This document shows positions 4,747 to 22,928 of a stretch of DNA of 32,000 bases, piece by piece. Source of the stretch: an uncultured Alphaproteobacteria bacterium (GTDB lineage Bacteria > Pseudomonadota > Alphaproteobacteria > Rs-D84); NCBI GenBank assembly GCA_963931495.1, contig OZ007020.1, positions 690,001 to 722,000 on the forward strand. The letters are read 5' to 3'. Below the pieces are notes generated by a model that was not told the origin of the DNA, ran no database searches, and saw only the letters and a list, made by a program, of their open reading frames with translations. The first letter of the stretch is position 1, and each line of letters begins with the position of its first letter. The translations under genes were made by a program, and so were the position numbers.

Positions 4747-5217
4747 TTAATTATTATGAACAACCACATCTAGGCCCTCAGAATCAGATATAGGCTTATA
4801 TCTAGGTAGATTTTCATCAAAAAAGCGTTCATCAACAGACAACTGTTCTGCGTCTTTACTACGAGCTAGGGTTCTTTGTTTTGCTAAATCTATATCACAA
4901 TTTACTTGGTGCCATAAAGCTTTAGCGCCTAGCTTTTTAAGTCTTTGCCTAACATATTTTCTGTCATCAGCAGACCAAGAACCAGCATCATATATAACAT
5001 CTTGGTCATTTTTTATGGCTAAAGCTATTTGTTCCCATATATATTCGTCTACTTTATTGGCTTTATCCATAAAATCGTCACCAACTTCTGTACCAAAAAG
5101 TTCTATCATAACCTCATCTGGCGTAAATCTTCGTGCGCCAAGTTGTTTTTCCAGTTGCTTTGCAATTGTTGTTTTACCAAAACCTATATACCCACACATT
5201 AAATGAACTGTTGACAT
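4747..5217 (-). CDS. P-loop kinase-like ATP-binding protein (AAA_33-like)
   Basis: A Walker A motif 'GYIGFGKTT' sits near the N-terminus, and the ~156-aa size fits small predicted kinases. A GGAGGA Shine-Dalgarno sequence lies just upstream of the ATG at 5217, so the ORF-track start at 5253 is rejected. Confidence 0.65.
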   Translation of the reverse strand: MSTVHLMCGYIGFGKTTIAKQLEKQLGARRFTPDEVMIELFGTEVGDDFMDKANKVDEYIWEQIALAIKNDQDVIYDAGSWSADDRKYVRQRLKKLGAKALWHQVNCDIDLAKQRTLARSKDAEQLSVDERFFDENLPRYKPISDSEGLDVVVHNN

Positions 5218-5370
5218 AATATCCTCCACACGAGTTTTTACGCCTAAAAACAAACTTTATGATACTCATGATTTTATAAAGTGTAAACATCAAAAACAAT
5301 AAAACTTATCTAAGATTTTACCTTGTTTTTTGGGTAGCATGTGATACTTTTCAAAAAAAGGACCGCAAAC

Positions 5371-6757: not shown

Positions 6758-8077
6758 ATGGGTGCACTAGTATTTGAAAATTTAAAAGTTGCGGATATTC
6801 ATGGTTATGAACATAACGCAAAAACGCATCCTGAATCTCAGGTGCAACAAATCATATCTTCCATAACCAAGTTTGGTTTTAATAATCCAATATTAATCGA
6901 TGAAAACAATGAAATTATCGCAGGCCACGGTCGTTTTATGGCCGCCCAAGCAATGAATCTGGAAACAGTTCCGACTGTAAAACTTTCCCACTTAACAGAT
7001 GCCCAAAAACGTGCATACAGGTTGGCCGATAACAAGATTGCCGAAAACGGTGGATGGAATAAAGAATTGTTAAGTCTGGAAATCAAAGATTTGGAAAAGA
7101 TATGCTTGAACGATAATTTTGTAATCCAAGACATTGGATTTAATGATGCGGAATTGGATTCTATCGTTAATTTTACAGATGCAAAAGTAATCAATCAGAA
7201 AACCAATGCTGTTCCATTTATACCAGAAGATGAAATCATATCCAAACCTGGTGATATATGGCAATTAGGCAAACATCGCATAATCTGTGGTAACAGTTTA
7301 AACCCAAAAACGTTTGCAAAACTGTTTGAAAATGATAAGGCAAACATGGTTCTACAAGATCCACCATATAATGTGAAAATTGATGGGCATGTCTGCGGTT
7401 CTGGGACGGTAAAGCATAAAGAATTTGCCATGGCATCTGGTGAAATGACCACAAATGAATTCACAAAGTTTTTGGAAACCAATTTCAATCTGTGTAAACA
7501 ATATTCCAAAGATGGTTCTTTGCACTATAACTTTATGGATTGGCGGCATATATTGGAAATAACAACTGCCGGGCAATCGGTGTTTGATAAATTCATCAAT
7601 ATGTGTGTATGGGGCAAAACATCTGGTGGTATGGGTAGTTTGTACAGAAGCCAACATGAACTATGTTTTATATTCCAAAACGGCAAAGAATCACATAATA
7701 ACAACGTCCAACTTGGTAAATATGGCAGATACAGAACCAATGTATGGCAATATGCAGGCGTGAATACTTTTGGCAAACATAAACAAGACGGCATCATGCA
7801 TCCAACGGTTAAGCCCGTAGAAATGCTAAAAGATGCAATGTTGGATGTATCAAAACGTGGTGATATTGTGTTGGACAGTTTTCTTGGCTCGGGTAGCACT
7901 TTAATTGCATGTCAACAATCTGGACGCATTTGTTATGGCATAGAATATGAACCGTTGTACATCGATACAACAATACGCAGGTTTCAGAATTTATTCGGGA
8001 TAGATGCGATAAATTTATCCATCGGTAAAACATACAATGAATTGTTGAAAGAACACAAAGGGAGCAATAATGTCTGA
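6758..8077 (+). CDS. ParB-like nuclease domain / DNA N6-adenine or N4-cytosine methyltransferase fusion (phage-type)
   Basis: The N-terminus 'NPILIDENNEIIAGHGRFMAA' is ParB/Srx-like. Motif IV 'LQDPPYN' precedes motif I 'LDSFLGSGSTLIA', which is the beta-class order. A GGAGG Shine-Dalgarno sequence lies upstream of the ATG. Confidence 0.85.
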   Translation: MGALVFENLKVADIHGYEHNAKTHPESQVQQIISSITKFGFNNPILIDENNEIIAGHGRFMAAQAMNLETVPTVKLSHLTDAQKRAYRLADNKIAENGGWNKELLSLEIKDLEKICLNDNFVIQDIGFNDAELDSIVNFTDAKVINQKTNAVPFIPEDEIISKPGDIWQLGKHRIICGNSLNPKTFAKLFENDKANMVLQDPPYNVKIDGHVCGSGTVKHKEFAMASGEMTTNEFTKFLETNFNLCKQYSKDGSLHYNFMDWRHILEITTAGQSVFDKFINMCVWGKTSGGMGSLYRSQHELCFIFQNGKESHNNNVQLGKYGRYRTNVWQYAGVNTFGKHKQDGIMHPTVKPVEMLKDAMLDVSKRGDIVLDSFLGSGSTLIACQQSGRICYGIEYEPLYIDTTIRRFQNLFGIDAINLSIGKTYNELLKEHKGSNNV

Positions 8078-8474
8078 TTATGAAATAGGATATGGCCGCC
8101 CACCAAAATCGACCAGATTTAAACCTGGTCAATCGGGCAACCCCAAAGGTCGTCCAAAGGGTTCAACTAACCTTGAAAATTTGTTAAATAAAGCGTTGGA
8201 TGCGAAAGTAACAATCGAAACCCCAAACGGCACCAAAAGAATAACAAAACGCGAAGCAATAATGTTGAAATGGGTAAACCAAGCTTTATCTGGTGACTCA
8301 AAATCAATACAAGCATTATTGCCATGGATTGCAAAGGCCGATGAACATAAAAACAAGATTGCACAAATGCTTGAAGACGTAAGTGAAGAAGATAAAGAAA
8401 TATTGAAAGGTTTTGCAAATGGGAATCAAACAAATAACACCACAACGCCGGTTGCAGGCGATATTGCGGAATGA
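8070..8474 (+). CDS. DUF5681-type phage protein (terminase-small-subunit-associated)
   Basis: The 'GRPPKSTRFKPGQSGNPKGRPKGS' N-terminal signature is typical of DUF5681 proteins found upstream of terminase large subunits in alphaproteobacterial phages. The gene overlaps the upstream gene by 8 nt. Confidence 0.7.
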   Translation: MSDYEIGYGRPPKSTRFKPGQSGNPKGRPKGSTNLENLLNKALDAKVTIETPNGTKRITKREAIMLKWVNQALSGDSKSIQALLPWIAKADEHKNKIAQMLEDVSEEDKEILKGFANGNQTNNTTTPVAGDIAE

Positions 8475-8763
8475 TTTCAAAAGTTTTGTTATCAAGGTGT
8501 TTCAGACGGTTTCGAATGACACATACCTTGATAATTGGCACGTGGATGTCGTTTGCAATGAAATAGAACAAATGATAGAGGGACAAAATACGCGACTAAT
8601 TGTGAATTTACCACCGCGTAATATGAAATCCATTATTTGTTCTGTGGCTTTGCCAGCATATCTATTGGGTAAGAATCCACGCGAACAAATTGTATGCGTT
8701 AGTTATTCGGATGATTTATCATCGCAATTGGCCAATCAATTTAAAATGGTTAATGATCTATGA
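8413..8763 (+). pseudogene. phage terminase large subunit, N-terminal fragment only
   Basis: 'DNWHVDVVCNEIEQMIEGQNTRLIVNLPPRNMKSIICSVALPAYLLGKNPREQIVCVSYSDDLS' is a TerL N-terminal/Walker A-like region (PPRxxKS). The frame ends after about 116 codons, whereas a full TerL is more than 400 aa. Confidence 0.7.
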
Positions 8764-8795
8764 TGGTGTAATTGCCACTAAACATTAGGTTTATT

Positions 8796-9428
8796 TTAAG
8801 CAATCCATTTTGACTGTTTATCCATATATAGTGGTTCAAGATTGCGCCTAAATTCTTCAACAATATTACGGATTTCTTTATTGATCTTATCATCAGGATT
8901 GATTTTATCAGCTTTCGTTTCGCAAAATATTAAATCATATAACGGTTTGTATTCAGGAGTGTCCTTACCATAATATAAATTTTTGGAAGCTTGCATAATC
9001 ACCGAGTTATAATTAGTCAATTTAAGCATAGCCGCCATGATTCCGTTACCCCAATACATATAAGCATTGTTTTGTAAAGAACGCAACCTATCTATAATAT
9101 CTTGCTGTGTTATCAATCGGTGATGCGGAACAAGATAGTTTATTCTTTCTGGATGTATATCTACCTTGCCAGGATTTGTAATTGCTTCTGATTTAATCCA
9201 CTCTAGAGTCTCATCATGCTCTGTTTGGGCTATCATGGGCATTCTAACATGTATGTATAAATCCTGGATATCGTAAACAGCGCGCATAATTTCAGCAGCA
9301 AGTTCAATTTTCTTTTTACCAATAAATTCCCGCTTCCAAGTATATAAAGCAACCACGGCGAGAATGGGTGTAATAACAGAAGCAATTGCAGAAATAATAC
9401 TATAAATATTGCAAGTCATCGATATCAC
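8796..9428 (-). CDS. hypothetical N-terminally membrane-anchored protein, last gene of the R-M operon
   Basis: One predicted TM helix 'IYSIISAIASVITPILAVVALYTW' is followed by a soluble region of about 175 aa with no recognised catalytic motif. The gene starts (GTG 9428 or ATG 9419) only 7-16 nt after the HNH gene stop. Confidence 0.5.
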   Translation of the reverse strand: MISMTCNIYSIISAIASVITPILAVVALYTWKREFIGKKKIELAAEIMRAVYDIQDLYIHVRMPMIAQTEHDETLEWIKSEAITNPGKVDIHPERINYLVPHHRLITQQDIIDRLRSLQNNAYMYWGNGIMAAMLKLTNYNSVIMQASKNLYYGKDTPEYKPLYDLIFCETKADKINPDDKINKEIRNIVEEFRRNLEPLYMDKQSKWIA

Positions 9429-9435
9429 CCGTTGT

Positions 9436-10611
9436 TTATTTTAAACGATCAAACACATAATCAACAGGAGATTGGTATTTATTCGGCATCATAGATAATA
9501 CAAATCTTCTAACTTCCGGACGAGAATTTAACATATTCTCTATGATATGACGTTGCAAATCAGGAAACGCCCTGTGTGGTGCTAAAGCTCTGTGACATAC
9601 TGGACATAATTTTACCAAATTATCCAGTACATCAACCGCATCAGAATCATTAGCATATGCAATAACATGATTTACTTCAAAATAATATCTATTGTTTCGT
9701 GGCATCAGGAATGAACGATCTTTGATATCATACCGATCACCACAACCAACGCATACATCCGCGAAAGTTTCTCTTGCGAATGCAACAATTTTTTGATTTC
9801 TGATAGAAAATTTATTTTCTGGCACCACATCAATTGGTTCACGAAATTCAAGATCTTGTCTTAAGGCGTTTATTTCATTTGGCGTCAACTCTCTGCCAAG
9901 AATCTTTTGACGATAAAAAATCAGACGTTCTTCAAACATGTGATACGCATGAACTTCGCCCAAATTTCTTATATTTACTCTTAAGACATCTGTTTTATAT
10001 TTATTTATATTCGGGTATCTAGTTATTACGTTTTCGTAAAACCATTTCAAATTTATTCTAATTTGAGTATTTCTCTCCCTTTCTCCTGTGGCAAACTGCG
10101 GTTGTAATTCTCTAAAGTTTAGGTTCAAACGTTCTATCAAATTATTTGAAGACAATAACAGTTTGAAAATATTGTCTACATATCGTGGAGTAGGATTTTT
10201 AAGATCCAACGCATATAAGCCACGATTAAAATCTGCGCTTCCACGCAACAAAAACATTGCCAGAGCAATTTCTTCATCTAGTGGGTAATTAACCGGCAAT
10301 TTATTCAATAATACGATGATTTTTTCATAAATAGCATTCAGAAAATCATCCAATGATATGCGTTTGTCATTGACGACAGTTGCAGCTATGGTTGTTGCGT
10401 TTATTTGAACAAAATCAATTCCATATTTACGAGTCAGCGCTTGAGCTGTTTTCTTATGTGAATCCGCTGGCAAAGGTAAAAACTTCGTTATTCTGTACCT
10501 GGATTGAATTTCAAAATTTCCGTCTTTTTCATCGGCAGCATTGAAAAACGCTACGAAAAGAGTTTCTATCGGCATTTGTAATAGTTGACCTATATTCATA
10601 ACAATCCCCAC
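9436..10611 (-). CDS. HNH-family restriction endonuclease (putative R subunit)
   Basis: The C-terminal 'CVGCGDRYD...FEVNHVIAYANDSDAVDVLDNLVKLCPVCHRAL' is a zinc-linked HNH (CxxC...NH...N...CxxCH) motif. The N-terminal ~290 aa are unassigned and presumably bind DNA. The start overlaps the methyltransferase stop by 1 nt (TAGTG). Confidence 0.7.
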   Translation of the reverse strand: MGIVMNIGQLLQMPIETLFVAFFNAADEKDGNFEIQSRYRITKFLPLPADSHKKTAQALTRKYGIDFVQINATTIAATVVNDKRISLDDFLNAIYEKIIVLLNKLPVNYPLDEEIALAMFLLRGSADFNRGLYALDLKNPTPRYVDNIFKLLLSSNNLIERLNLNFRELQPQFATGERERNTQIRINLKWFYENVITRYPNINKYKTDVLRVNIRNLGEVHAYHMFEERLIFYRQKILGRELTPNEINALRQDLEFREPIDVVPENKFSIRNQKIVAFARETFADVCVGCGDRYDIKDRSFLMPRNNRYYFEVNHVIAYANDSDAVDVLDNLVKLCPVCHRALAPHRAFPDLQRHIIENMLNSRPEVRRFVLSMMPNKYQSPVDYVFDRLK

Positions 10612-11351
10612 TAAATATCATTAAAAATTCTTTTATATGACATGTTGTAGAATTTTTCATCCAATTCTACACCTATAAAGTGTCTGTTTTGACGGACACA
10701 TGCAATACCTGTACTGCCACTACCCATAAATGGGTCTAACACCAAATCCCCGGGGTTTGTTAAGGTTTTTACAAGAAATTCCATCAAACATACAGGCTTC
10801 TGGGTTGGGTGCCCCAATCTTTCTTTTCCACTTGGCGATGGACATTTGATCTCTGGTCTTAAATATGAGCCACTAGTATTATTAAATGTCCATTTCTTTT
10901 TGCCTTTGACACACCATATTGCCAATTCATAATCAGCAACGAACCGACTGGACATATTACGTGGCATTGGATTTGGTTTAATCCACCTTATCAAGTCTTT
11001 TACAGAGTATCCATGTTGCTCTAACGTTTTTGCTATCGTTCCGATATTCAAAAAACTATTAAATATAACGATATTACCGCCTTCTTTTAATAATGTATCA
11101 GCAATATCTAACCAAGATAATAAGTCAAAGCCTTTATCCCATTCACCAAAATCCACCCCCTGTCTTTTAGCAGATTTCATTGTTCCAAAATTATTGCTCT
11201 TAGATATGTTATATGGTGGATCTGTAATAATAGCATCAACTTTTATACCTTTCTTAGCTAAATCGGTCATAGCAATCAAACAGTCTCCGTGTATAAGTTG
11301 AACGGATTCTTTGTTGAGTAAGCCATTAAAATCCATCTGACTATTATTCAT
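10611..11351 (-). CDS. beta-class DNA methyltransferase (N6-adenine or N4-cytosine)
   Basis: Motif IV 'IITDPPYN' lies near the N-terminus and motif I 'LDPFMGSGSTGIA' near the C-terminus. The gene overlaps the m5C methyltransferase gene by 8 nt. Confidence 0.9.
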   Translation of the reverse strand: MNNSQMDFNGLLNKESVQLIHGDCLIAMTDLAKKGIKVDAIITDPPYNISKSNNFGTMKSAKRQGVDFGEWDKGFDLLSWLDIADTLLKEGGNIVIFNSFLNIGTIAKTLEQHGYSVKDLIRWIKPNPMPRNMSSRFVADYELAIWCVKGKKKWTFNNTSGSYLRPEIKCPSPSGKERLGHPTQKPVCLMEFLVKTLTNPGDLVLDPFMGSGSTGIACVRQNRHFIGVELDEKFYNMSYKRIFNDI

Positions 11352-12411
11352 CTTCAGCTTTTATTATCTCTTGTGCTATTGCGTTGGCTAATCTAGGCGG
11401 CACAGCATTGCCAATCTGTTTTATTATAGACGATTTATTGCCATAAAAGACAAACTCATCTGGAAATGATTGGATACGCGCTGCCTCTCGCGGCGTTATA
11501 GACCTGTTCAAAAACGGGTGATTATTACGACCATTTGATGGCGTATCAAATCTGGTAACGATGGTAGGTGACGGTTTGTCTTTTTCAAGACGCCCCCATG
11601 TTCCACCAAATGTAGATTTAGTCAAATGCTCTTTTGGTAAAAACTCTTTGCCTTTTTCTGGTGGAATTAAAGATAACCTGTATATGGCTACATCTGAATG
11701 CTTTGTCGCCACATGATTATACAATTTCTTGCTGTTTTTGCGAAGCTCTTTTTGATAATCACTTTGTGCAGCATTTCTATATTCTGAAATAAAATCTCCT
11801 TCACCAGATTCTAGATAAGCTAAATCTGAAATGGCGTCCCAAACCGAAACCTGTCTTGCTTGTAAATTTTGAACAGGTAGTTTGATTTCGCCCCTTTTTG
11901 TACCTATAAATACAGCTCTTCTTCTGGTTTGTGGTACGCCAAAGTATCGGGCATCCAATACCCCATAATTAACAGTATAGCCTTGTCTGTGCGCTTCCTT
12001 CAAAATAAGTTTCAGGAAATAACCATTTTCTGTACCAAGTATACTTGCGACGTTTTCAATGACAAAATATTTTGGATTAAAGAACTTAGTATATCTAAAA
12101 AATTCTTTGAACAAAAAGTTTCTCTCATCTTCTCTGCCAAGACATTTACCACGTGTTGAAAAACCCTGACACGGGGGCCCACCAACGATGATATCAATTT
12201 TCGCGTCTATTTGTTTTGCGATATCTTTTATATCTAACTTACAAATATCGCCTATAAATACCTTTGCATTTGGATTGTTTTTAGCATATGAAGCCGCTAT
12301 CGTTGGGTCCCACTCCAACCCAGCGACAACATTAAAACGACCAGTCTGTTCAAAACCAAGACTCAAACCGCCAACACCGCAAAACAATTCAAACAAATTG
12401 AGTTTTTTCAT
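11344..12411 (-). CDS. dcm: DNA (cytosine-5)-methyltransferase
   Basis: The canonical m5C motifs are present: 'LFCGVGGLSLGF' (I), 'GGPPCQGFS' (IV), 'ENV' (VI), 'PQTRRR' (VIII) and 'QIGNAVPP' (X). Confidence 0.95.
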   Translation of the reverse strand: MKKLNLFELFCGVGGLSLGFEQTGRFNVVAGLEWDPTIAASYAKNNPNAKVFIGDICKLDIKDIAKQIDAKIDIIVGGPPCQGFSTRGKCLGREDERNFLFKEFFRYTKFFNPKYFVIENVASILGTENGYFLKLILKEAHRQGYTVNYGVLDARYFGVPQTRRRAVFIGTKRGEIKLPVQNLQARQVSVWDAISDLAYLESGEGDFISEYRNAAQSDYQKELRKNSKKLYNHVATKHSDVAIYRLSLIPPEKGKEFLPKEHLTKSTFGGTWGRLEKDKPSPTIVTRFDTPSNGRNNHPFLNRSITPREAARIQSFPDEFVFYGNKSSIIKQIGNAVPPRLANAIAQEIIKAEDE

Positions 12412-12676
12412 TATTCCTTCCGATAGAAAAACTATACAAGAATTTTACAAACAAAATCAAGGCGATTTACAACTTTCTATAAGCCCCATTTTTACCCAAT
12501 GTTACTATTCGGAACACTTTAAGGTACAATAAATCACAAAATCTGTGAATGTTATCCAAATAGGAGTGGATAGTCATTTCTTTATATATATCAGACATTT
12601 TGTGTAATAGAGTTTTATCAACTTGACTTTCTGCGCTTTGTAAGCAGTAATGGCACAACCTTAAAAGGATGTGATC

Positions 12677-13114
12677 ATGGCAAAAATTGAATTACCAACG
12701 ACATTGGATGAATTACGTGCGATGTCGTTCGCAGATCGGGTGGCATTATGGGCAAAATACTCACAATATCCGTTTAAACGGCAAATGCGGTCGCTTTGGT
12801 ATTATATTCAATGTGACCGCCTAAACCTGCGAATTGAGCATAAATATCTTGTGCAAATCCGCAAATACAAAGACGATCCAGAAAAATGCTTAACCAGTGT
12901 CCAAAAAAACAAATATAATTTTGTTCCTGGCACAATTCTGACCCGATATTTCAAGGGCATAAAACATGCTATCTTGGTCAATGATGACGGCAGTTTTTCT
13001 TATAACGGCGATAAATATTCAACATTGTCGGGGATAGCAACCAAGATTGCTGGTATGAAAATGTCTGGCAACTTCTTCTTTGGTATAAACAAAAGGTACA
13101 AACATGACAATTAA
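12677..13114 (+). CDS. DUF2924 domain protein (recombinase-associated)
   Basis: 'RSLWYYIQC..L' and the C-terminal 'YSTLSGIATKIAGMKMSGNFFFGI' are DUF2924-like. The gene overlaps the downstream serine recombinase by 11 nt. The ATG at 12677, with an AAAGGA Shine-Dalgarno sequence, is preferred over the GTG at 12671. Confidence 0.65.
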   Translation: MAKIELPTTLDELRAMSFADRVALWAKYSQYPFKRQMRSLWYYIQCDRLNLRIEHKYLVQIRKYKDDPEKCLTSVQKNKYNFVPGTILTRYFKGIKHAILVNDDGSFSYNGDKYSTLSGIATKIAGMKMSGNFFFGINKRYKHDN

Positions 13115-14693
13115 GTGTGCGATTTATACCCGCAAATCCACCGAACATGGCTTGGAACAGGAGTTCAATTCTCTGCAAAACCAGGAAGAATCCTGCAAGG
13201 CTTATATTGCTTCACAGGCTTTTAATGGGTGGCAATATTACAAAACCTATAGTGATGCAGCAATATCTGGCGGAACTATGGATAGACCAGCGTTAAAACA
13301 AATGTTGGACGATATGGCGCATGGATTGGTGAATACTGTGGTTGTTTACAAGGTCGACCGATTATCGCGTTCAATCCTGGATTTCCATAATATGATGAAG
13401 TATTTCGAAAAATACGGTGCGAATTTCGTGTCCATTACACAATCATTTGATACCAGCACATCAATGGGAAAGCTAACCTTGAATATGTTGCTATCTTTTG
13501 CCCAATTTGAACGCGAAGTGTCATCGGAACGTGTGCGTGATAAAATTCGCGCTAGCAAAGCCAAAGGTCTATGGATGGGCGGTAATCCGCCACTGGGGTA
13601 TGATGTGATAGATAAGAAACTGGTTCCGAACGCGGTTGAGGCCACAAATGTTCGGAAACTTTTTGAAAAGTATCTGGAACTGCAATCTGTAAATGCATTA
13701 ACAGAATATGCCGTGGCGCACAAAATATATGCCAAACAATGGGTAACCGCCAAAGGTATTATCAAAGGCGGTCGCCCCATTGCAAAAATGAGTATGCACC
13801 GTATCCTGCGGGATAAGATTTACATCGGTCAAATTGGAAACAAAAAAGAAGGCACTTTTGCCAAAGGTGAACACGAACCAATAATTCCCGAAGAACTGTT
13901 TAATCGTGTTCAGGTTGCGCTGGCTAATAATTCCAACAACAAATCATCCAGCACGCGTGCACCGAATATACTAACTGGCAAACTGTTTAATCATAATGGT
14001 GTTAAATTTATAAATCAAAGCACCTGTGGTAATGGCAAAAAGGCCGCGTATTATTATGCAACCAAAGGCTTCTATCTGACCGCGGCACGAGTAGATGAGA
14101 TTGTAGTCAAAACTATAACACGATTTCTAAACAGCGACATGTCAGAACTACCAATTAACTTGGTTGGCATACTAAAACGCATCAATATAACAGATATGTC
14201 ATATGCACAGAAACGTGATCTTATTCGGTCGTTGATTGAAAAGATTGTATATTCACAGGAACAACTTATTTACACACTGACCACAGATGCACAAAAACTA
14301 CAGCTATTTATAAATGAAAATTATGTTAATCAAACCGCTGAACCAATGGAATACATCATCGGTGACAACAACATAACGATCACAGAAAAAGTGTTTCTAC
14401 GAAAATACGTTAACACGGTGTACGACCACGGTAAAAATGGTGTTCTAAGTGTAACAGATAATAATCATCTAATCGTCAGAGCATTTGCAACCGCGTGGAA
14501 ATATAGGGGACTATATGAACGTGACGGTGGGGTTGATAATATCATCCGTAATCTGCACACATCCCCACGACAATTTTATCGATATTTAGACATCGCATAC
14601 ATGAATCCAAAAAAAGCGAACCAGATCCTGTCTGGTAGACTAAAAATCAACGTTAATGATTTGTTTCAGATTGCACGTGAGAATCATTTTTAA
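13104..14693 (+). CDS. large serine recombinase
   Basis: The resolvase-type catalytic N-terminus reads 'CAIYTRKSTEHGLEQEFNSLQNQ' and 'VVVYKVDRLSRS'. The 'GLWMGGNPPLGYD' recombinase domain and the 529-aa length fit a large serine recombinase. Confidence 0.9.
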   Translation: MTIKCAIYTRKSTEHGLEQEFNSLQNQEESCKAYIASQAFNGWQYYKTYSDAAISGGTMDRPALKQMLDDMAHGLVNTVVVYKVDRLSRSILDFHNMMKYFEKYGANFVSITQSFDTSTSMGKLTLNMLLSFAQFEREVSSERVRDKIRASKAKGLWMGGNPPLGYDVIDKKLVPNAVEATNVRKLFEKYLELQSVNALTEYAVAHKIYAKQWVTAKGIIKGGRPIAKMSMHRILRDKIYIGQIGNKKEGTFAKGEHEPIIPEELFNRVQVALANNSNNKSSSTRAPNILTGKLFNHNGVKFINQSTCGNGKKAAYYYATKGFYLTAARVDEIVVKTITRFLNSDMSELPINLVGILKRINITDMSYAQKRDLIRSLIEKIVYSQEQLIYTLTTDAQKLQLFINENYVNQTAEPMEYIIGDNNITITEKVFLRKYVNTVYDHGKNGVLSVTDNNHLIVRAFATAWKYRGLYERDGGVDNIIRNLHTSPRQFYRYLDIAYMNPKKANQILSGRLKINVNDLFQIARENHF

Positions 14694-14697
14694 AAAA

Positions 14698-16626
14698 TTA
14701 TTTTTTTAAAATATTGCAATATTGATCTTCAAGATATTTTATGCCGTCTTCTTTATCAACACGACTATTTAACATTTGTTTCATATTGAACAAAGATTGT
14801 TCATTGTCATTTAAAATATCCGCCCATGTTTTTATGTATAGTCTTTTATTCGGTGTGTCTTGTACACCGTAATTTATAAATCCGGTTTTCTTGTTTTCTA
14901 TTTCTTTTTTTGCCTCGGGTTTAATTTTAGAAGAAACCACAATTATATCCATCTCATATTTATCAAACTGAGCATTTGATGTAATGGTGTTGTAATATTT
15001 TTTAATTTGGGTGACCTCTTCAAATCCTATATCAACACTAGGCCTTTTTAATTCAACTATAAGTGCTTTTGGAGTGTCTCCAGAAAAACATTTTCTAGCA
15101 AAAAATAAGTCAGGTATATAATCACCACCGACAATATCATCGTGACCAACAAAATCTTTCAAGCCATCGCGTAATTCTTTTATAATCGTGCTAAAGGAAT
15201 TATCAGAAGCCAAAAAATTAAACTTTTCGCCAAAAATCCATGTTTCGTTTTCAATAATTTTATGTAATTGAGAACGTTCTTTTATATTTTTCAATTCGCC
15301 ATATGCTATTTGTCGTAATCCCTCTAAAAATTTTAATCTGTGCTGTATTGTTGATGATGTTTTTATTATCGAATTTAACGAAACTTCTTTCAATAAATCG
15401 GAAAAGTCTTGCATCTCTTCTGGTGTTAAATCCATTAACTTTTCTAATACATCTTTAAAATTTTCTGGATCACGTTGTATAACTAATTGGATTGTATTAA
15501 CGATACCCCTTTTTATGGACTGGGGAGTAGAGCTTTTAAACACTGAAGGACGAGTTGAGTTGAGTTTTATTAAAATTTTATCATATATGTGCTTGGTTTG
15601 TTCTTCTGATACAGATAACTTATCATCATCATCATATGGATAAATACCATCTTCCTTAAGAATTTGAATAATATCTTCAGATTTTTGTTTGTTGTGGTTA
15701 AAAATAAAACTATTTTTTAATTCAATAGCTTGACTTTTGATAGAAGATAATTCTGGATCTAAATTAGCGACACTTAGACGATTTTCTTTGTATGCATTTG
15801 CCACCCTGTCAGCTGCAATATAAACAGAATGATTTGATGTTTTTTTAAGGTCGTCTAATTGATCTTCTAATATCGTGTTCCAACTTGAATCGCACCAAAA
15901 CAAACGATTGTTTTCTGCTGTAGTGGTTTTCCAAACGATGGTTTTCATTTGTACATCCTCATTTGGATTAGGTAAAGTCTTTATGTCACTTGTTGCTTCA
16001 ATGTGGTCAGAAATATCTAAAGAGCTCCCGTTCAGAGTAATCGATACTCGTTTATCCTCAATAATTGTGAGGAAGAAACGTTCCAATATTTCTTTTAGCT
16101 CTTGTTGTGGTGGTATTTTTACAGTCTTACCATTTGCATATGCCGTAAAAATAGTTCCTGTTTTTGTTTTTATATCAGAGGCATCTACATCGTCTTCTAT
16201 CTCTGGTTTTAGTGGGTTATCAATATTTATTGTCACTCTTGTAGAATCTTTGTCGGTTTTTGTTTTCCATTCTACGATGTTGCCTAAAGCAAAGCTCTTG
16301 AAACGTCCTTGCCCATTTCTTCCGTGTACTAATCGATTAAAATCGTTTGTTTGGCCAATCCGTTTATTTGACATGCCAAAAGTCAAAAATGGGTCAACTT
16401 CTGTATTCTCGTTTGGTTTATAAAAACCTTTCCCATTATCCACAACCGTAATTTTATCTATAACCTTTAACTCATTTGTATAGATATTTATATCTATGCT
16501 ACTTGCTGAAGCATCTAATGAGTTATATACTATTTCCTCAAGTGCCCCAACAGGACTCGAGTTACTATAATTAGTGTTAATTAACTTGGGATTTGTTCGT
16601 ATATTAGCAGTTCGTATGTTTGGCAT
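14698..16626 (-). CDS. GHKL (MORC/MutL-like, HATPase_c_3-type) ATPase fused to a C-terminal PD-(D/E)xK nuclease (Shedu/DUF4263-like)
   Basis: N-terminal Bergerat-fold motifs are 'EEIVYNSLDA' (ExxxNxxDA), 'VVDNGKGF' (DxGxG) and 'GRNGQGRFKSFALG'. The C-terminal nuclease signature is 'ETWIFGEKF...YIPDLFF...ALIVELKRP...QIKKY' (D...ExK). The protein is 642 aa with no same-strand partner gene. Confidence 0.6.
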   Translation of the reverse strand: MPNIRTANIRTNPKLINTNYSNSSPVGALEEIVYNSLDASASSIDINIYTNELKVIDKITVVDNGKGFYKPNENTEVDPFLTFGMSNKRIGQTNDFNRLVHGRNGQGRFKSFALGNIVEWKTKTDKDSTRVTINIDNPLKPEIEDDVDASDIKTKTGTIFTAYANGKTVKIPPQQELKEILERFFLTIIEDKRVSITLNGSSLDISDHIEATSDIKTLPNPNEDVQMKTIVWKTTTAENNRLFWCDSSWNTILEDQLDDLKKTSNHSVYIAADRVANAYKENRLSVANLDPELSSIKSQAIELKNSFIFNHNKQKSEDIIQILKEDGIYPYDDDDKLSVSEEQTKHIYDKILIKLNSTRPSVFKSSTPQSIKRGIVNTIQLVIQRDPENFKDVLEKLMDLTPEEMQDFSDLLKEVSLNSIIKTSSTIQHRLKFLEGLRQIAYGELKNIKERSQLHKIIENETWIFGEKFNFLASDNSFSTIIKELRDGLKDFVGHDDIVGGDYIPDLFFARKCFSGDTPKALIVELKRPSVDIGFEEVTQIKKYYNTITSNAQFDKYEMDIIVVSSKIKPEAKKEIENKKTGFINYGVQDTPNKRLYIKTWADILNDNEQSLFNMKQMLNSRVDKEDGIKYLEDQYCNILKK

Positions 16627-16807
16627 ATAATTCCTTATAGTTTAGGCGTATTTTATTACTCAGATTAGATAAAATCAATTTATTTTATCGTAAACTGGCA
16701 TCAGACAATCAGGCAGGTTATATAGTTGGCGTGGATTTGGTCGAGTTGGCTATGAATAGTGATATACACCGGTAATATCGCCCACAAAAATCGCCAGAAA
16801 CGGGGCG

Positions 16808-16840
16808 AAAAAGAACATCCCGCGGAATTACCACGGGATG
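16808..16840 (-). terminator. putative rho-independent terminator downstream of tRNA-Ser
   Basis: A 7-bp stem pairs CATCCCG (16816-16822) with CGGGATG (16834-16840). On the minus strand it is followed by TTCTTTTT. Confidence 0.45.
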
Positions 16841-16851
16841 TCAGATATTAC

Positions 16852-16942
16852 TGGCGGAGACGAAGGGATTCGAACCCTTGATACCCTTGCGGGTATACTA
16901 CATTTCCAATGTAGCGCACTAGACCAACTATGCGACGTCTCC
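16852..16942 (-). tRNA. tRNA-Ser (anticodon GGA)
   Basis: The reverse complement folds as a cloverleaf. The acceptor stem is GGAGACG/CGTCTCC, followed by G and an encoded CCA. The anticodon stem is CTACA/TGTAG with loop TTGGAAA. There is a long variable arm (TATACCCGCAAGGGTATC) and a T-arm GGGTTCGAATCCC. Confidence 0.9.
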
Positions 16943-22406: not shown

Positions 22407-22928
22407 TTAATTTGCCGCGCGGCGCAAATCGCGAACCACAGTGCGATATTCTTCGCGTGTGATGCAACCATCACCATTTGCATCCATCGCCGGTAACGCA
22501 TTCTGTAAACGCGGACATTTTACAGACGACACATCCAGACATCCATTATCAAAATCTGCACGTGGGCAACGCGCATTTTGGCAATCCAGTAATTTTGCCG
22601 CACCGAATCCCAATGCAAAAACGATTAAAATCATTATCAGTTTTAACATGAAACGACCAAAACGTGATCCACCACTGCGCACACACTTGCAATCCGCGCC
22701 GCATTCACAGTTGTGACCACATTTACATTCATTTGTTTCCGGTGTTGGGATATTATTTTGTACCACATCTGGCGAAACAACTTTTTTAACATCTGCTTTT
22801 TTGGGTGCAGTTTTTTTAACTGTCGCCTTGGCAGGTGCTTTTTTTGCAGCCGGCTTTTTCGCATTGGCCGCCACAGTCTTGTTCGCTGTTGTTTTAGTAG
22901 TTGGCTTTTTTACAGATTTTGATGGCAT
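22407..22928 (-). CDS. single-pass membrane protein with K/A/P-rich tail, Cys-rich cluster and C-terminal EF-hand
   Basis: The N-terminus has 'KKPAAKKAPAKATVKKTAPKK' repeats, followed by 'CKCGHNCECGADCKC' and the TM segment 'FMLKLIMILIVFALGFGAA'. A canonical EF-hand loop 'DANGDGCITREE' lies near the C-terminus. Confidence 0.6.
   Translation of the reverse strand: MPSKSVKKPTTKTTANKTVAANAKKPAAKKAPAKATVKKTAPKKADVKKVVSPDVVQNNIPTPETNECKCGHNCECGADCKCVRSGGSRFGRFMLKLIMILIVFALGFGAAKLLDCQNARCPRADFDNGCLDVSSVKCPRLQNALPAMDANGDGCITREEYRTVVRDLRRAAN

Follow-up and report, generated by a model that had tools for sequence, protein, structure and literature searches.

The window analysed here is a 32,000-nucleotide (nt) stretch of contig OZ007020.1 (assembly GCA_963931495.1) from an uncultured member of the Alphaproteobacteria. 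Its minus strand carries a gene for a 642-amino-acid (aa) protein in which an N-terminal GHKL ATPase is joined to a C-terminal PD-(D/E)xK nuclease (Table 1). An earlier reading made from the letters of the window (the sequence-only reading) had singled out this open reading frame (ORF), and it is present as described, complete and with an ATG start. The ORF is not a chance frame, since a first search returned 119 full-length homologues and there are 1,484 cluster representatives (50% identity clusters) at E <= 1e-30; among the 150 of these that were listed (630 to 828 aa), the profile match runs nearly from end to end. Homologues are found in at least 536 species-representative genomes from many phyla. 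The protein is probably an innate-immunity nuclease that works on its own and belongs to the GHKL-ATPase branch of Shedu (paraMORC3; type 1D). The analysis establishes its domains, its conserved catalytic residues, its end-to-end homology to the family that contains the phage-defence protein VcSduA, the sporadic and mobile distribution of its relatives, and the lack of a partner gene.

The gene has its own ribosome-binding site (AAGGA, 5 nt ahead of the ATG). The promoter candidate upstream of it is suggestive only, and its consensus-scan score does not exceed the shuffle expectation. The minus strand further upstream holds tRNA-Ser(GGA), 226 nt from the gene, and the terminator of this tRNA; because the hairpin stands between the two, the gene is insulated from tRNA transcription. 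No same-strand partner was found. Downstream are plus-strand genes for a DUF2924 protein and a large serine recombinase, and the stop of the convergent recombinase ORF (14693) is separated by 4 nt from the stop of the 642-aa ORF. The stand-alone status of the gene and its mobile setting among recombinase and restriction-modification (R-M) genes had been recognized in the sequence-only reading and are confirmed.

Table 1 Features of the window. Positions count from its first letter, and residues are those of the 642-aa protein.
Feature	Position	Strand	Evidence and remarks
GHKL-ATPase/Shedu-type nuclease gene (paraMORC3-like)	14698-16626	minus	Complete, ATG, 642 aa plus stop; ORF list and translation
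Bergerat-fold GHKL ATPase, residues 1-200	16027-16626	minus	Pfam PF13589 and motif conservation
Beta-rich middle domain (S5/transducer-like), residues ~201-272	15811-16026	minus	AlphaFold2 strands 195-271
All-helical linker/arm, residues ~273-445	15292-15810	minus	AlphaFold2 helices 273-442, pLDDT 58-94
RecB/NucS/SduA-like PD-(D/E)xK nuclease, residues ~446-642	14701-15291	minus	Conserved catalytic set and fold matches
Candidate sigma-70-like promoter	16650-16678	minus	24 nt 5' of the ATG; consensus scan, 9/12 matches
Intrinsic terminator hairpin past tRNA-Ser	16814-16842	minus	12-bp stem, 7 GC pairs, T-run
tRNA-Ser(GGA)	16852-16942	minus	ARAGORN; boundary between housekeeping block and low-GC island
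Large serine recombinase	13104-14693	plus	Resolvase 6.9e-40 and Recombinase 1.8e-11; convergent with the GHKL-nuclease gene
DUF2924 protein	12671-13114	plus	Pfam, 1.6e-19
R-M operon: C5 cytosine methyltransferase, N6/N4 methyltransferase, 391-aa HNH endonuclease	9436-12411	minus	Pfam
210-aa ORF	8796-9428	minus	No Pfam match; follows the R-M operon
ParB-N-terminal/N6_N4 DNA methyltransferase fusion, then DUF5681 protein	6758-8474	plus	
AAA_33/zeta-toxin-like small kinase	4747-5253	minus	Far edge of the low-GC block
173-aa ORF	22407-22928	minus	Weak HC2 match and EF-hand motif

Conservation was counted in an alignment of 44 sequences that are 22% to 74% identical to the window protein, and a full-length AlphaFold2 model was built from the same alignment (predicted local distance difference test score, pLDDT, 84.6). 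The N-terminal part matches Pfam HATPase_c_3 (PF13589) over aa 26-136 with E=1.3e-13 (cut-off 25 bits), and this domain is present in all 44 homologues. Motif I is formed by E31, N35, and D38, motif II by D63xGxG67, and motif III by G102xxGxG107-R108, with G157 in the motif IV region. N35, D38, D63, G65, G67, G102, G105, G107, R108, and G157 are invariant, and the motif-I glutamate (E31) is Glu in 39 sequences and Gln in the other five. Profile searches of the N-terminal part against the Protein Data Bank (PDB) match MutL, PMS2, TopoVI-B, and MORC2. When the whole model was compared with PDB structures in Foldseek, the ATPase cassettes of MORC3, MORC2, and MORC4 ranked first, followed by GyrB, MutL, Topo II, and TRAP1 (E ~1e-10 to 1e-9); TM scores are modest (0.42-0.51). 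The alignments span 372-445 columns for the MORC cassettes and 309-354 columns for the MutL N-terminal fragments, which is more than the Bergerat fold, so that both the GHKL fold and the S5/transducer-like domain are covered. W232 and Y269 in the middle domain are invariant. The earlier assignment to GHKL/MORC-like ATPases therefore stands on both profile and fold, and the helical linker that it described is seen in the model (about 170 aa). The helical region of the window family also aligns with the equivalent region of the VcSduA family in hhalign comparisons.

The C-terminal catalytic set comprises E450(xxQ453xH455), W463xxG466E, D506, E525-x-K527-R-P529, and Q540xxxY544. Eight of these residues (E450, W463, G466, D506, K527, P529, Q540, and Y544) are invariant in the 44 sequences and three are nearly so (E525 in 43, H455 in 42, and Q453 in 41). 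All seven motifs quoted in the sequence-only reading were located in the protein, three in the ATPase (EEIVYNSLDA, 30-39; VVDNGKGF, 61-68; GRNGQGRFKSFALG, 102-115) and four in the nuclease (ETWIFGEKF, 461-469; YIPDLFF, 503-509; ALIVELKRP, 521-529; QIKKY, 540-544). A separate model of residues 395-642 (pLDDT 91.1) matches exclusively PD-(D/E)xK nucleases in Foldseek, namely NucS/EndoMS (2vld, E=1e-3; 5gke), FokI, MspJI, Cap4, Escherichia coli SduA (EcSduA; 8ps4/8ps5), and McrC. Of these, the EcSduA matches (E ~0.02) rank first by query TM-score (0.40-0.43) and by coverage (268 columns). These fold matches, together with conserved D506, E525, and K527, bear out the proposed restriction-endonuclease fold with a D...ExK core. 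The active site of EcSduA consists of E226/Q230/D269/E283/K285/Q314 (Loeff et al. 2025). Canonical SduA proteins share the pattern E/Q...D...ExK...Q, and the set in the window protein (E..Q..H, D, ExK, QxxxY) parallels that of EcSduA, which indicates that the structural description in the sequence-only reading was correct.

Profile libraries recognize this nuclease to different degrees. PDB sequences searched with a profile of the C-terminal alignment gave no relevant match. HSDR_N_2, another PD-(D/E)xK family, gives weak matches in 35 of the 44 homologues. The SduA model of PADLOC-DB matches nine of the 44 (best E=6.4e-6), or 7 of 22 when the C-termini alone are scanned, and it is the sole recurrent C-terminal match in that database; matches to 'REase_II' disappear once the N-terminus is removed and so lie on the GHKL part. 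The resemblance to Shedu that had been read from the sequence is supported; for the window protein itself, the similarity is weak in both this model and the EcSduA fold match. NOV_C/DUF3883, which had been offered as an alternative identity for the nuclease, was rejected, with no match to PF13020 at E <= 10 in the window protein and none among the families shown for the 44 homologues.

The nuclease domain may occur beyond the GHKL proteins. A search with the C-terminal region (residues 395-642) returned 220 proteins, and among the 120 listed (P0120-P0239; 165-502 aa) none has a precomputed PF14082 match and all but two have no recorded GHKL domain. The search thus gave no direct link to Pfam DUF4263. 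HSDR_N_2 is present in some of these proteins. Short contigs may have yielded many of them as fragments, but some come from long contigs, a 434-aa Bacillus protein among them, which is why the nuclease domain may also exist alone or with other N-termini.

The matches to MutL and NucS raise the question of a housekeeping DNA-repair enzyme in which a MutL-like ATPase is fused to a mismatch endonuclease like NucS/EndoMS. The best N-terminal sequence matches are to MutL/MLH1/PMS2, and NucS/EndoMS is the best fold match of the nuclease domain. However, the MutL model of NCBIfam (TIGR00585) reaches 29 bits, far short of its cut-off (180 bits), and covers the N-terminal 50 aa alone, and other matches of the window protein among NCBIfam and PDB sequences are weak and confined to the N-terminus of MutL/MLH1. 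What the protein has in common with MutL, MORC, and GyrB is the fold and the motifs for ATP binding within its first 270 aa and, likely, an ATP-driven dimerization clamp, whereas the C-terminal domain of MutL, the CW and coiled-coil domains of MORC, and Toprim are all absent and a RecB/NucS-like PD-(D/E)xK nuclease takes their place. Likewise, the NucS match extends over 133-152 columns, the N-terminal domain of NucS is lacking, and the genomic setting is not one of repair. The gene is sporadic, occurs on plasmids, in phages, and on a low-GC island, and has neighbours that vary, and identical copies reside in hosts whose housekeeping genes are 61% identical. A MutL-type identity was rejected on the TIGR00585 score and the missing C-terminal domain, and a role in repair is extremely improbable. 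SduA itself has been reported to be a distant relative of NucS (Loeff et al.).

Proteins of this design were described in 2008 as paraMORC3, defined as a GHKL plus S5 module followed by a conserved C-terminal globular RecB-like nuclease with an E-D-ExK signature; the family is patchily distributed and spreads laterally, is prevalent among both proteobacteria and bacteroidetes, and its genes often stand alone (Iyer, Abhiman & Aravind, Biol Direct 2008, PMC2292703). Compared by definition rather than by member list, the window protein fits paraMORC3 exactly. The preprint by Gu et al. (bioRxiv 10.1101/2023.08.10.552793) classifies HATPase_c_3 with a linked 'N24' middle domain and DUF4263 as Shedu type 1D, and the HATPase_c_3 signature suggests that the GHKL class of Gu et al. 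is the subfamily of the window protein. A member of the architecture has been validated in Vibrio cholerae. VcSduA (A1552VC_00276, WASA lineage), encoded by a single gene, defends against T1-like phages and vibriophage X29; a GHKL ATPase forms its N-terminus and a PD-(D/E)xK 'DUF4263' domain its C-terminus (Adams et al., Nat Microbiol 2025, PMC12137116). Its E27A and K557A variants each lose defence, it protects at all multiplicities of infection, and its oligomer predictions are confident for a dimer and poorly support a tetramer. Adams et al. remark that such proteins 'were previously annotated as paraMORC3' (PMC12137116).

To relate the window protein to VcSduA, we used an alignment consisting of the 700-aa protein of the Ti plasmid of Agrobacterium tumefaciens Ach5 (pTi), nine diverse plasmid homologues from PLSDB, and three database homologues. 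The seed is the 'ATP-binding protein' of this plasmid, number 36 in the list of VcSduA-model matches of Adams et al. (preprint Table 5). The conserved motifs of this family (E466..H470, W497xxD500E, D529, E552-x-K554-R-P, and Q570xxxY574) agree motif for motif with those of the window family, and its Glu and Lys (E30 and K554) are close to the published positions in VcSduA (E27 and K557). An exact 530-residue Glu-Lys spacing, as between E27 and K557, was sought in the homologue set and was not found. In hhalign, the 44-sequence alignment matches the VcSduA-family alignment with a probability of 99.5% (E=1.6e-22) over 567 columns, from the N-box through the end of the nuclease, at ~14% identity. 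The C-terminal domains alone match with 95.1% (E=3.3e-8) over 193 columns, and every catalytic motif is aligned with its counterpart. This end-to-end homology places the window protein in the VcSduA architectural family. Both are single polypeptides with the order GHKL ATPase, middle domain, helical region, and PD-(D/E)xK nuclease, both share the motifs ExxxN, W-h-h-x-E, D, hhVE[LF]KRP, and QxxxY, both are stand-alone and mobile, and the Glu and Lys required in VcSduA have counterparts in E31 and K527.

The two nonetheless belong to different subfamilies, with ~14-21% identity between them. HATPase_c_3 is strong in the window family, whereas the VcSduA family mostly has weak matches to HATPase_c; the SduA model of PADLOC v2.0 recognizes nine of the 44 window-family proteins and none of the 13 VcSduA-family proteins. 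Together with the low identity and the absence of the window-subfamily accessions searched from the published table of 543 VcSduA-model matches, these differences separate the window subfamily from VcSduA. Judged by these profiles, the window protein is a member of a distinct sister subfamily that appears to be nearer than VcSduA to the canonical SduA profile. The pTi Ach5 protein, the one VcSduA-family member scanned, has no Pfam DUF4263 match, and with the PADLOC result this means that the experimentally validated branch would not be labelled Shedu by standard profile tools. Canonical SduA proteins (Bacillus cereus and E. coli; DUF4263; Gu et al. 2025, Loeff et al. 2025) are single-gene defences whose N-terminal regulatory domain governs the PD-(D/E)xK nuclease at the C-terminus, a layout that the window protein shares. 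In contrast to the GHKL branch, for which a dimer is predicted, their sensors are non-enzymatic (sPC4/Whirly or a DNA-end clamp) and the enzyme is a tetramer, and the profile and fold similarity of the window protein to them is weak. On the octopine Ti plasmid Ach5 (NZ_CP011249.1, 111070-124266), the VcSduA-family gene is located in an apparent defence/toxin-antitoxin cluster with genes for an integrase, VapC/Phd, DUF1403, ScpB-like, and PIN-domain proteins, a trypsin-like peptidase, and TIR-domain proteins.

The architecture is therefore a known one: its description dates from 2008, its cataloguing as a Shedu subtype from 2023-25, and a relative was shown to block phage in 2025. The sequence-only reading had presented the gene as a candidate for a novel single-gene defence system, a claim that is refuted because the architecture is already a catalogued Shedu subtype (paraMORC3; type 1D of Gu et al.; validated as VcSduA). 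It had also held that an ATP-gated nuclease would be mechanistically distinct from the characterized Shedu sensor domains, but VcSduA combines the same ATPase and nuclease.

In MutL, MORC, GyrB, and Hsp90, ATP binding dimerizes the GHKL gates and closes a clamp with the middle domain, a picture with which the dimer predicted for VcSduA by Adams et al. is in line. By analogy with VcSduA, MutL, MORC, and GyrB, ATP binding would dimerize the N-terminal gates of the window protein, and its middle domain and helical arms would then form a clamp around DNA. The ATP-dependent clamped state would most likely position or unlock the C-terminal SduA/NucS-like nuclease, which would cut the invading DNA. 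For VcSduA this is the DNA of phages, and the protein protects directly, not by abortive infection. E31 of motif I and K527 of the ExK motif are both expected to be essential. The gene itself sits on a low-GC island next to tRNA-Ser and is passed on horizontally.

At the E31 column (nt 16534-16536 of the window), Gln replaces Glu in the homologues P0010, P0011, P0018, P0024, and P0026. These proteins are 44-45% identical to the window protein and keep all nuclease residues. They look like natural variants that bind but do not hydrolyse ATP, a hint that some lineages may need to bind the nucleotide but not to hydrolyse it. The existence of this Gln clade, the position of the subfamily outside the VcSduA model, and its closeness to canonical SduA leave room for a further, rather unlikely reading, in which the HATPase_c_3 subfamily is a functionally distinct ATP-gated Shedu lineage. 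Nucleotide binding, not hydrolysis, could then be the switch, and the proteins could have another trigger, oligomeric state, or DNA target than VcSduA.

Several observations weigh against assigning the window protein to an immune role within Shedu. No Pfam model recognizes its C-terminus, and in hmmscan the DUF4263 profile (PF14082) that the sequence-only reading had put forward for checking matches neither the window protein nor any of the 44 homologues. The PADLOC-DB SduA match of the window protein itself is marginal (E=0.04; profile positions 206-260 pair with aa 411-469), and NucS comes before SduA in the Foldseek ranking for the nuclease domain. In BLASTP, the pTi protein and the window protein show collinear but marginal matches (E=0.04 for the N-terminus and 0.08 for the C-terminus, 21-22% segment identity). 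The link to VcSduA runs through proteins listed as matches to its model, not through the VcSduA sequence itself. In the 543-match table of Adams et al., the accessions searched (four records and one species name) and the motif 'ELIWNA' are absent, although this is an indirect test. With Gln in place of the catalytic Glu in five of the 44 homologues, hydrolysis of ATP may be dispensable in part of the family. Finally, the defence role of the window protein and its subfamily is a prediction from homology.

The distribution of the subfamily is that of a mobile gene. Homologues are found in 48 plasmid records and in two phages, both infecting Pasteurella. In phage Pmp14 (OR544131.1, 13752-15710), a 30%-identical member annotated as 'hypothetical protein' lies between tail assembly and tape-measure genes, which is a typical moron position; for phage Pmp3, the family match alone was considered. 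No neighbour family is common to more than six of the 80 loci compared. The commonest immediate neighbours are ResIII, SWI2/SNF2, integrases, type I/IIG R-M, GmrSD_N, KAP NTPase, DUF4917, and AAA_21, and ordinary metabolic genes occur as well. Such heterogeneous neighbours and mobile distribution fit a stand-alone mobile defence gene, and not a housekeeping enzyme or an obligatory R-M subunit.

In the window, the GC content drops from 0.41-0.47 to 0.31-0.37 between ~4 and 17 kb. To the right of tRNA-Ser are housekeeping genes for a MiaB-like radical S-adenosylmethionine (rSAM) enzyme, DacA, holB, TatD, and SmpB. The low-GC block to the left contains the GHKL-nuclease gene, the DUF2924 and recombinase genes, the R-M operon, the ParB-N6/N4 methylase and DUF5681 genes, and an AAA_33/zeta-like kinase. 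An att-like direct repeat of tRNA-Ser was sought and none was found. A 100%-identical protein is encoded in two other metagenome contigs (L001 and L002) at the same position beside tRNA-Ser, where the R-M operon is missing and no more of the recombinase adjoins the gene than its final 184 codons (in L001, a C-terminal 184-aa remnant). Positions 14020-16901 of the window and 9726-12607 of L001 (the segment is also in L002) form a 2.9-kb stretch of 99.4% DNA identity that reaches from these recombinase codons through the GHKL-nuclease gene and the region upstream of it into tRNA-Ser. The neighbouring housekeeping rSAM proteins of the window and L001 are 61% identical, indicating that the cassette was recently exchanged horizontally at a syntenic tRNA-Ser site. 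A GTDB-representative metagenome-assembled genome of an uncultured member of the Alphaproteobacteria (L015) shares the R-M operon, DUF2924, recombinase, and GHKL-nuclease genes at ~91% DNA identity (window positions 8752-16877), together with the ParB-methylase segment (6774-8164), and no similarity was detected beyond the tRNA-proximal end. The R-M/recombinase/GHKL-nuclease block behaves as a composite mobile element.

Some other genes of the window were noted as well. The ParB-methylase/DUF5681 pair, which is also present in L001 and L015, looks like an orphan methylase module derived from a phage or an integrative and conjugative element. The R-M operon is followed by a 210-aa ORF that has no Pfam match, and a small AAA_33/zeta-toxin-like kinase gene marks the far edge of the low-GC block. 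Among the genes on the right side, a 173-aa ORF combines a weak N-terminal match to the histone-H1-like HC2 family with a C-terminal EF-hand motif, an unusual pairing.

The nearby R-M operon invites the reading that the GHKL protein is an accessory subunit of the neighbouring system that loops DNA between the recognition and cleavage sites of the HNH/methylase operon. A DNA-looping accessory role in R-M was proposed for MORC and paraMORC ATPases by Iyer et al., who also saw paraMORCs in R-M neighbourhoods (PMC2292703). The operon is 2.3 kb from the gene, the two travel together in L015, and R-M genes are among the commonest neighbours of the subfamily. Nevertheless, the window protein carries its own nuclease, the convergent recombinase gene intervenes, the upstream region is its own and is insulated by a terminator, and the identical gene persists in L001 and L002 without the operon. 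At the level of the family, R-M genes share the limit of six loci in 80 that holds for every neighbour, Iyer et al. themselves mention many stand-alone paraMORC3 genes (PMC2292703), and VcSduA acts alone (PMC12137116). An R-M accessory function is thus very unlikely.

The mobility of the gene is also compatible with a mainly selfish role in conflict between elements, in which the protein would act as an exclusion or stabilization nuclease of the island against competing plasmids and islands, or as an addiction module. A serine recombinase is encoded on the same island, relatives are carried on conjugative plasmids and inside prophages, the 2.9-kb cassette has recently moved between hosts, and EcSduA also limits transformation by linear-ended DNA (Loeff et al.). 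On the other hand, the sole relative tested defends against phage and does so without host killing (PMC12137116), and no antitoxin-like partner is seen in the 80 loci. A selfish role is unlikely as the main one, and it overlaps with the immune-nuclease reading rather than excluding it.

The window protein, a probable stand-alone immune nuclease, enlarges the ATPase-regulated branch of Shedu by a well-supported example and by a broad sister subfamily; VcSduA is the one tested protein of that branch. The picture of how such systems work stays unchanged. Were the HATPase_c_3 subfamily a distinct lineage, its switch, trigger, oligomeric state, or DNA target could differ from those of VcSduA. Because the subfamily is missed by DUF4263, is marginal in PADLOC v2.0 (E=0.04 for the window protein), and is absent from the VcSduA match table, annotation of defence systems probably overlooks it. 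The 99.4%-identical cassette between 61%-identical flanking genes is an unusually clean case of recent exchange of a single-gene defence.

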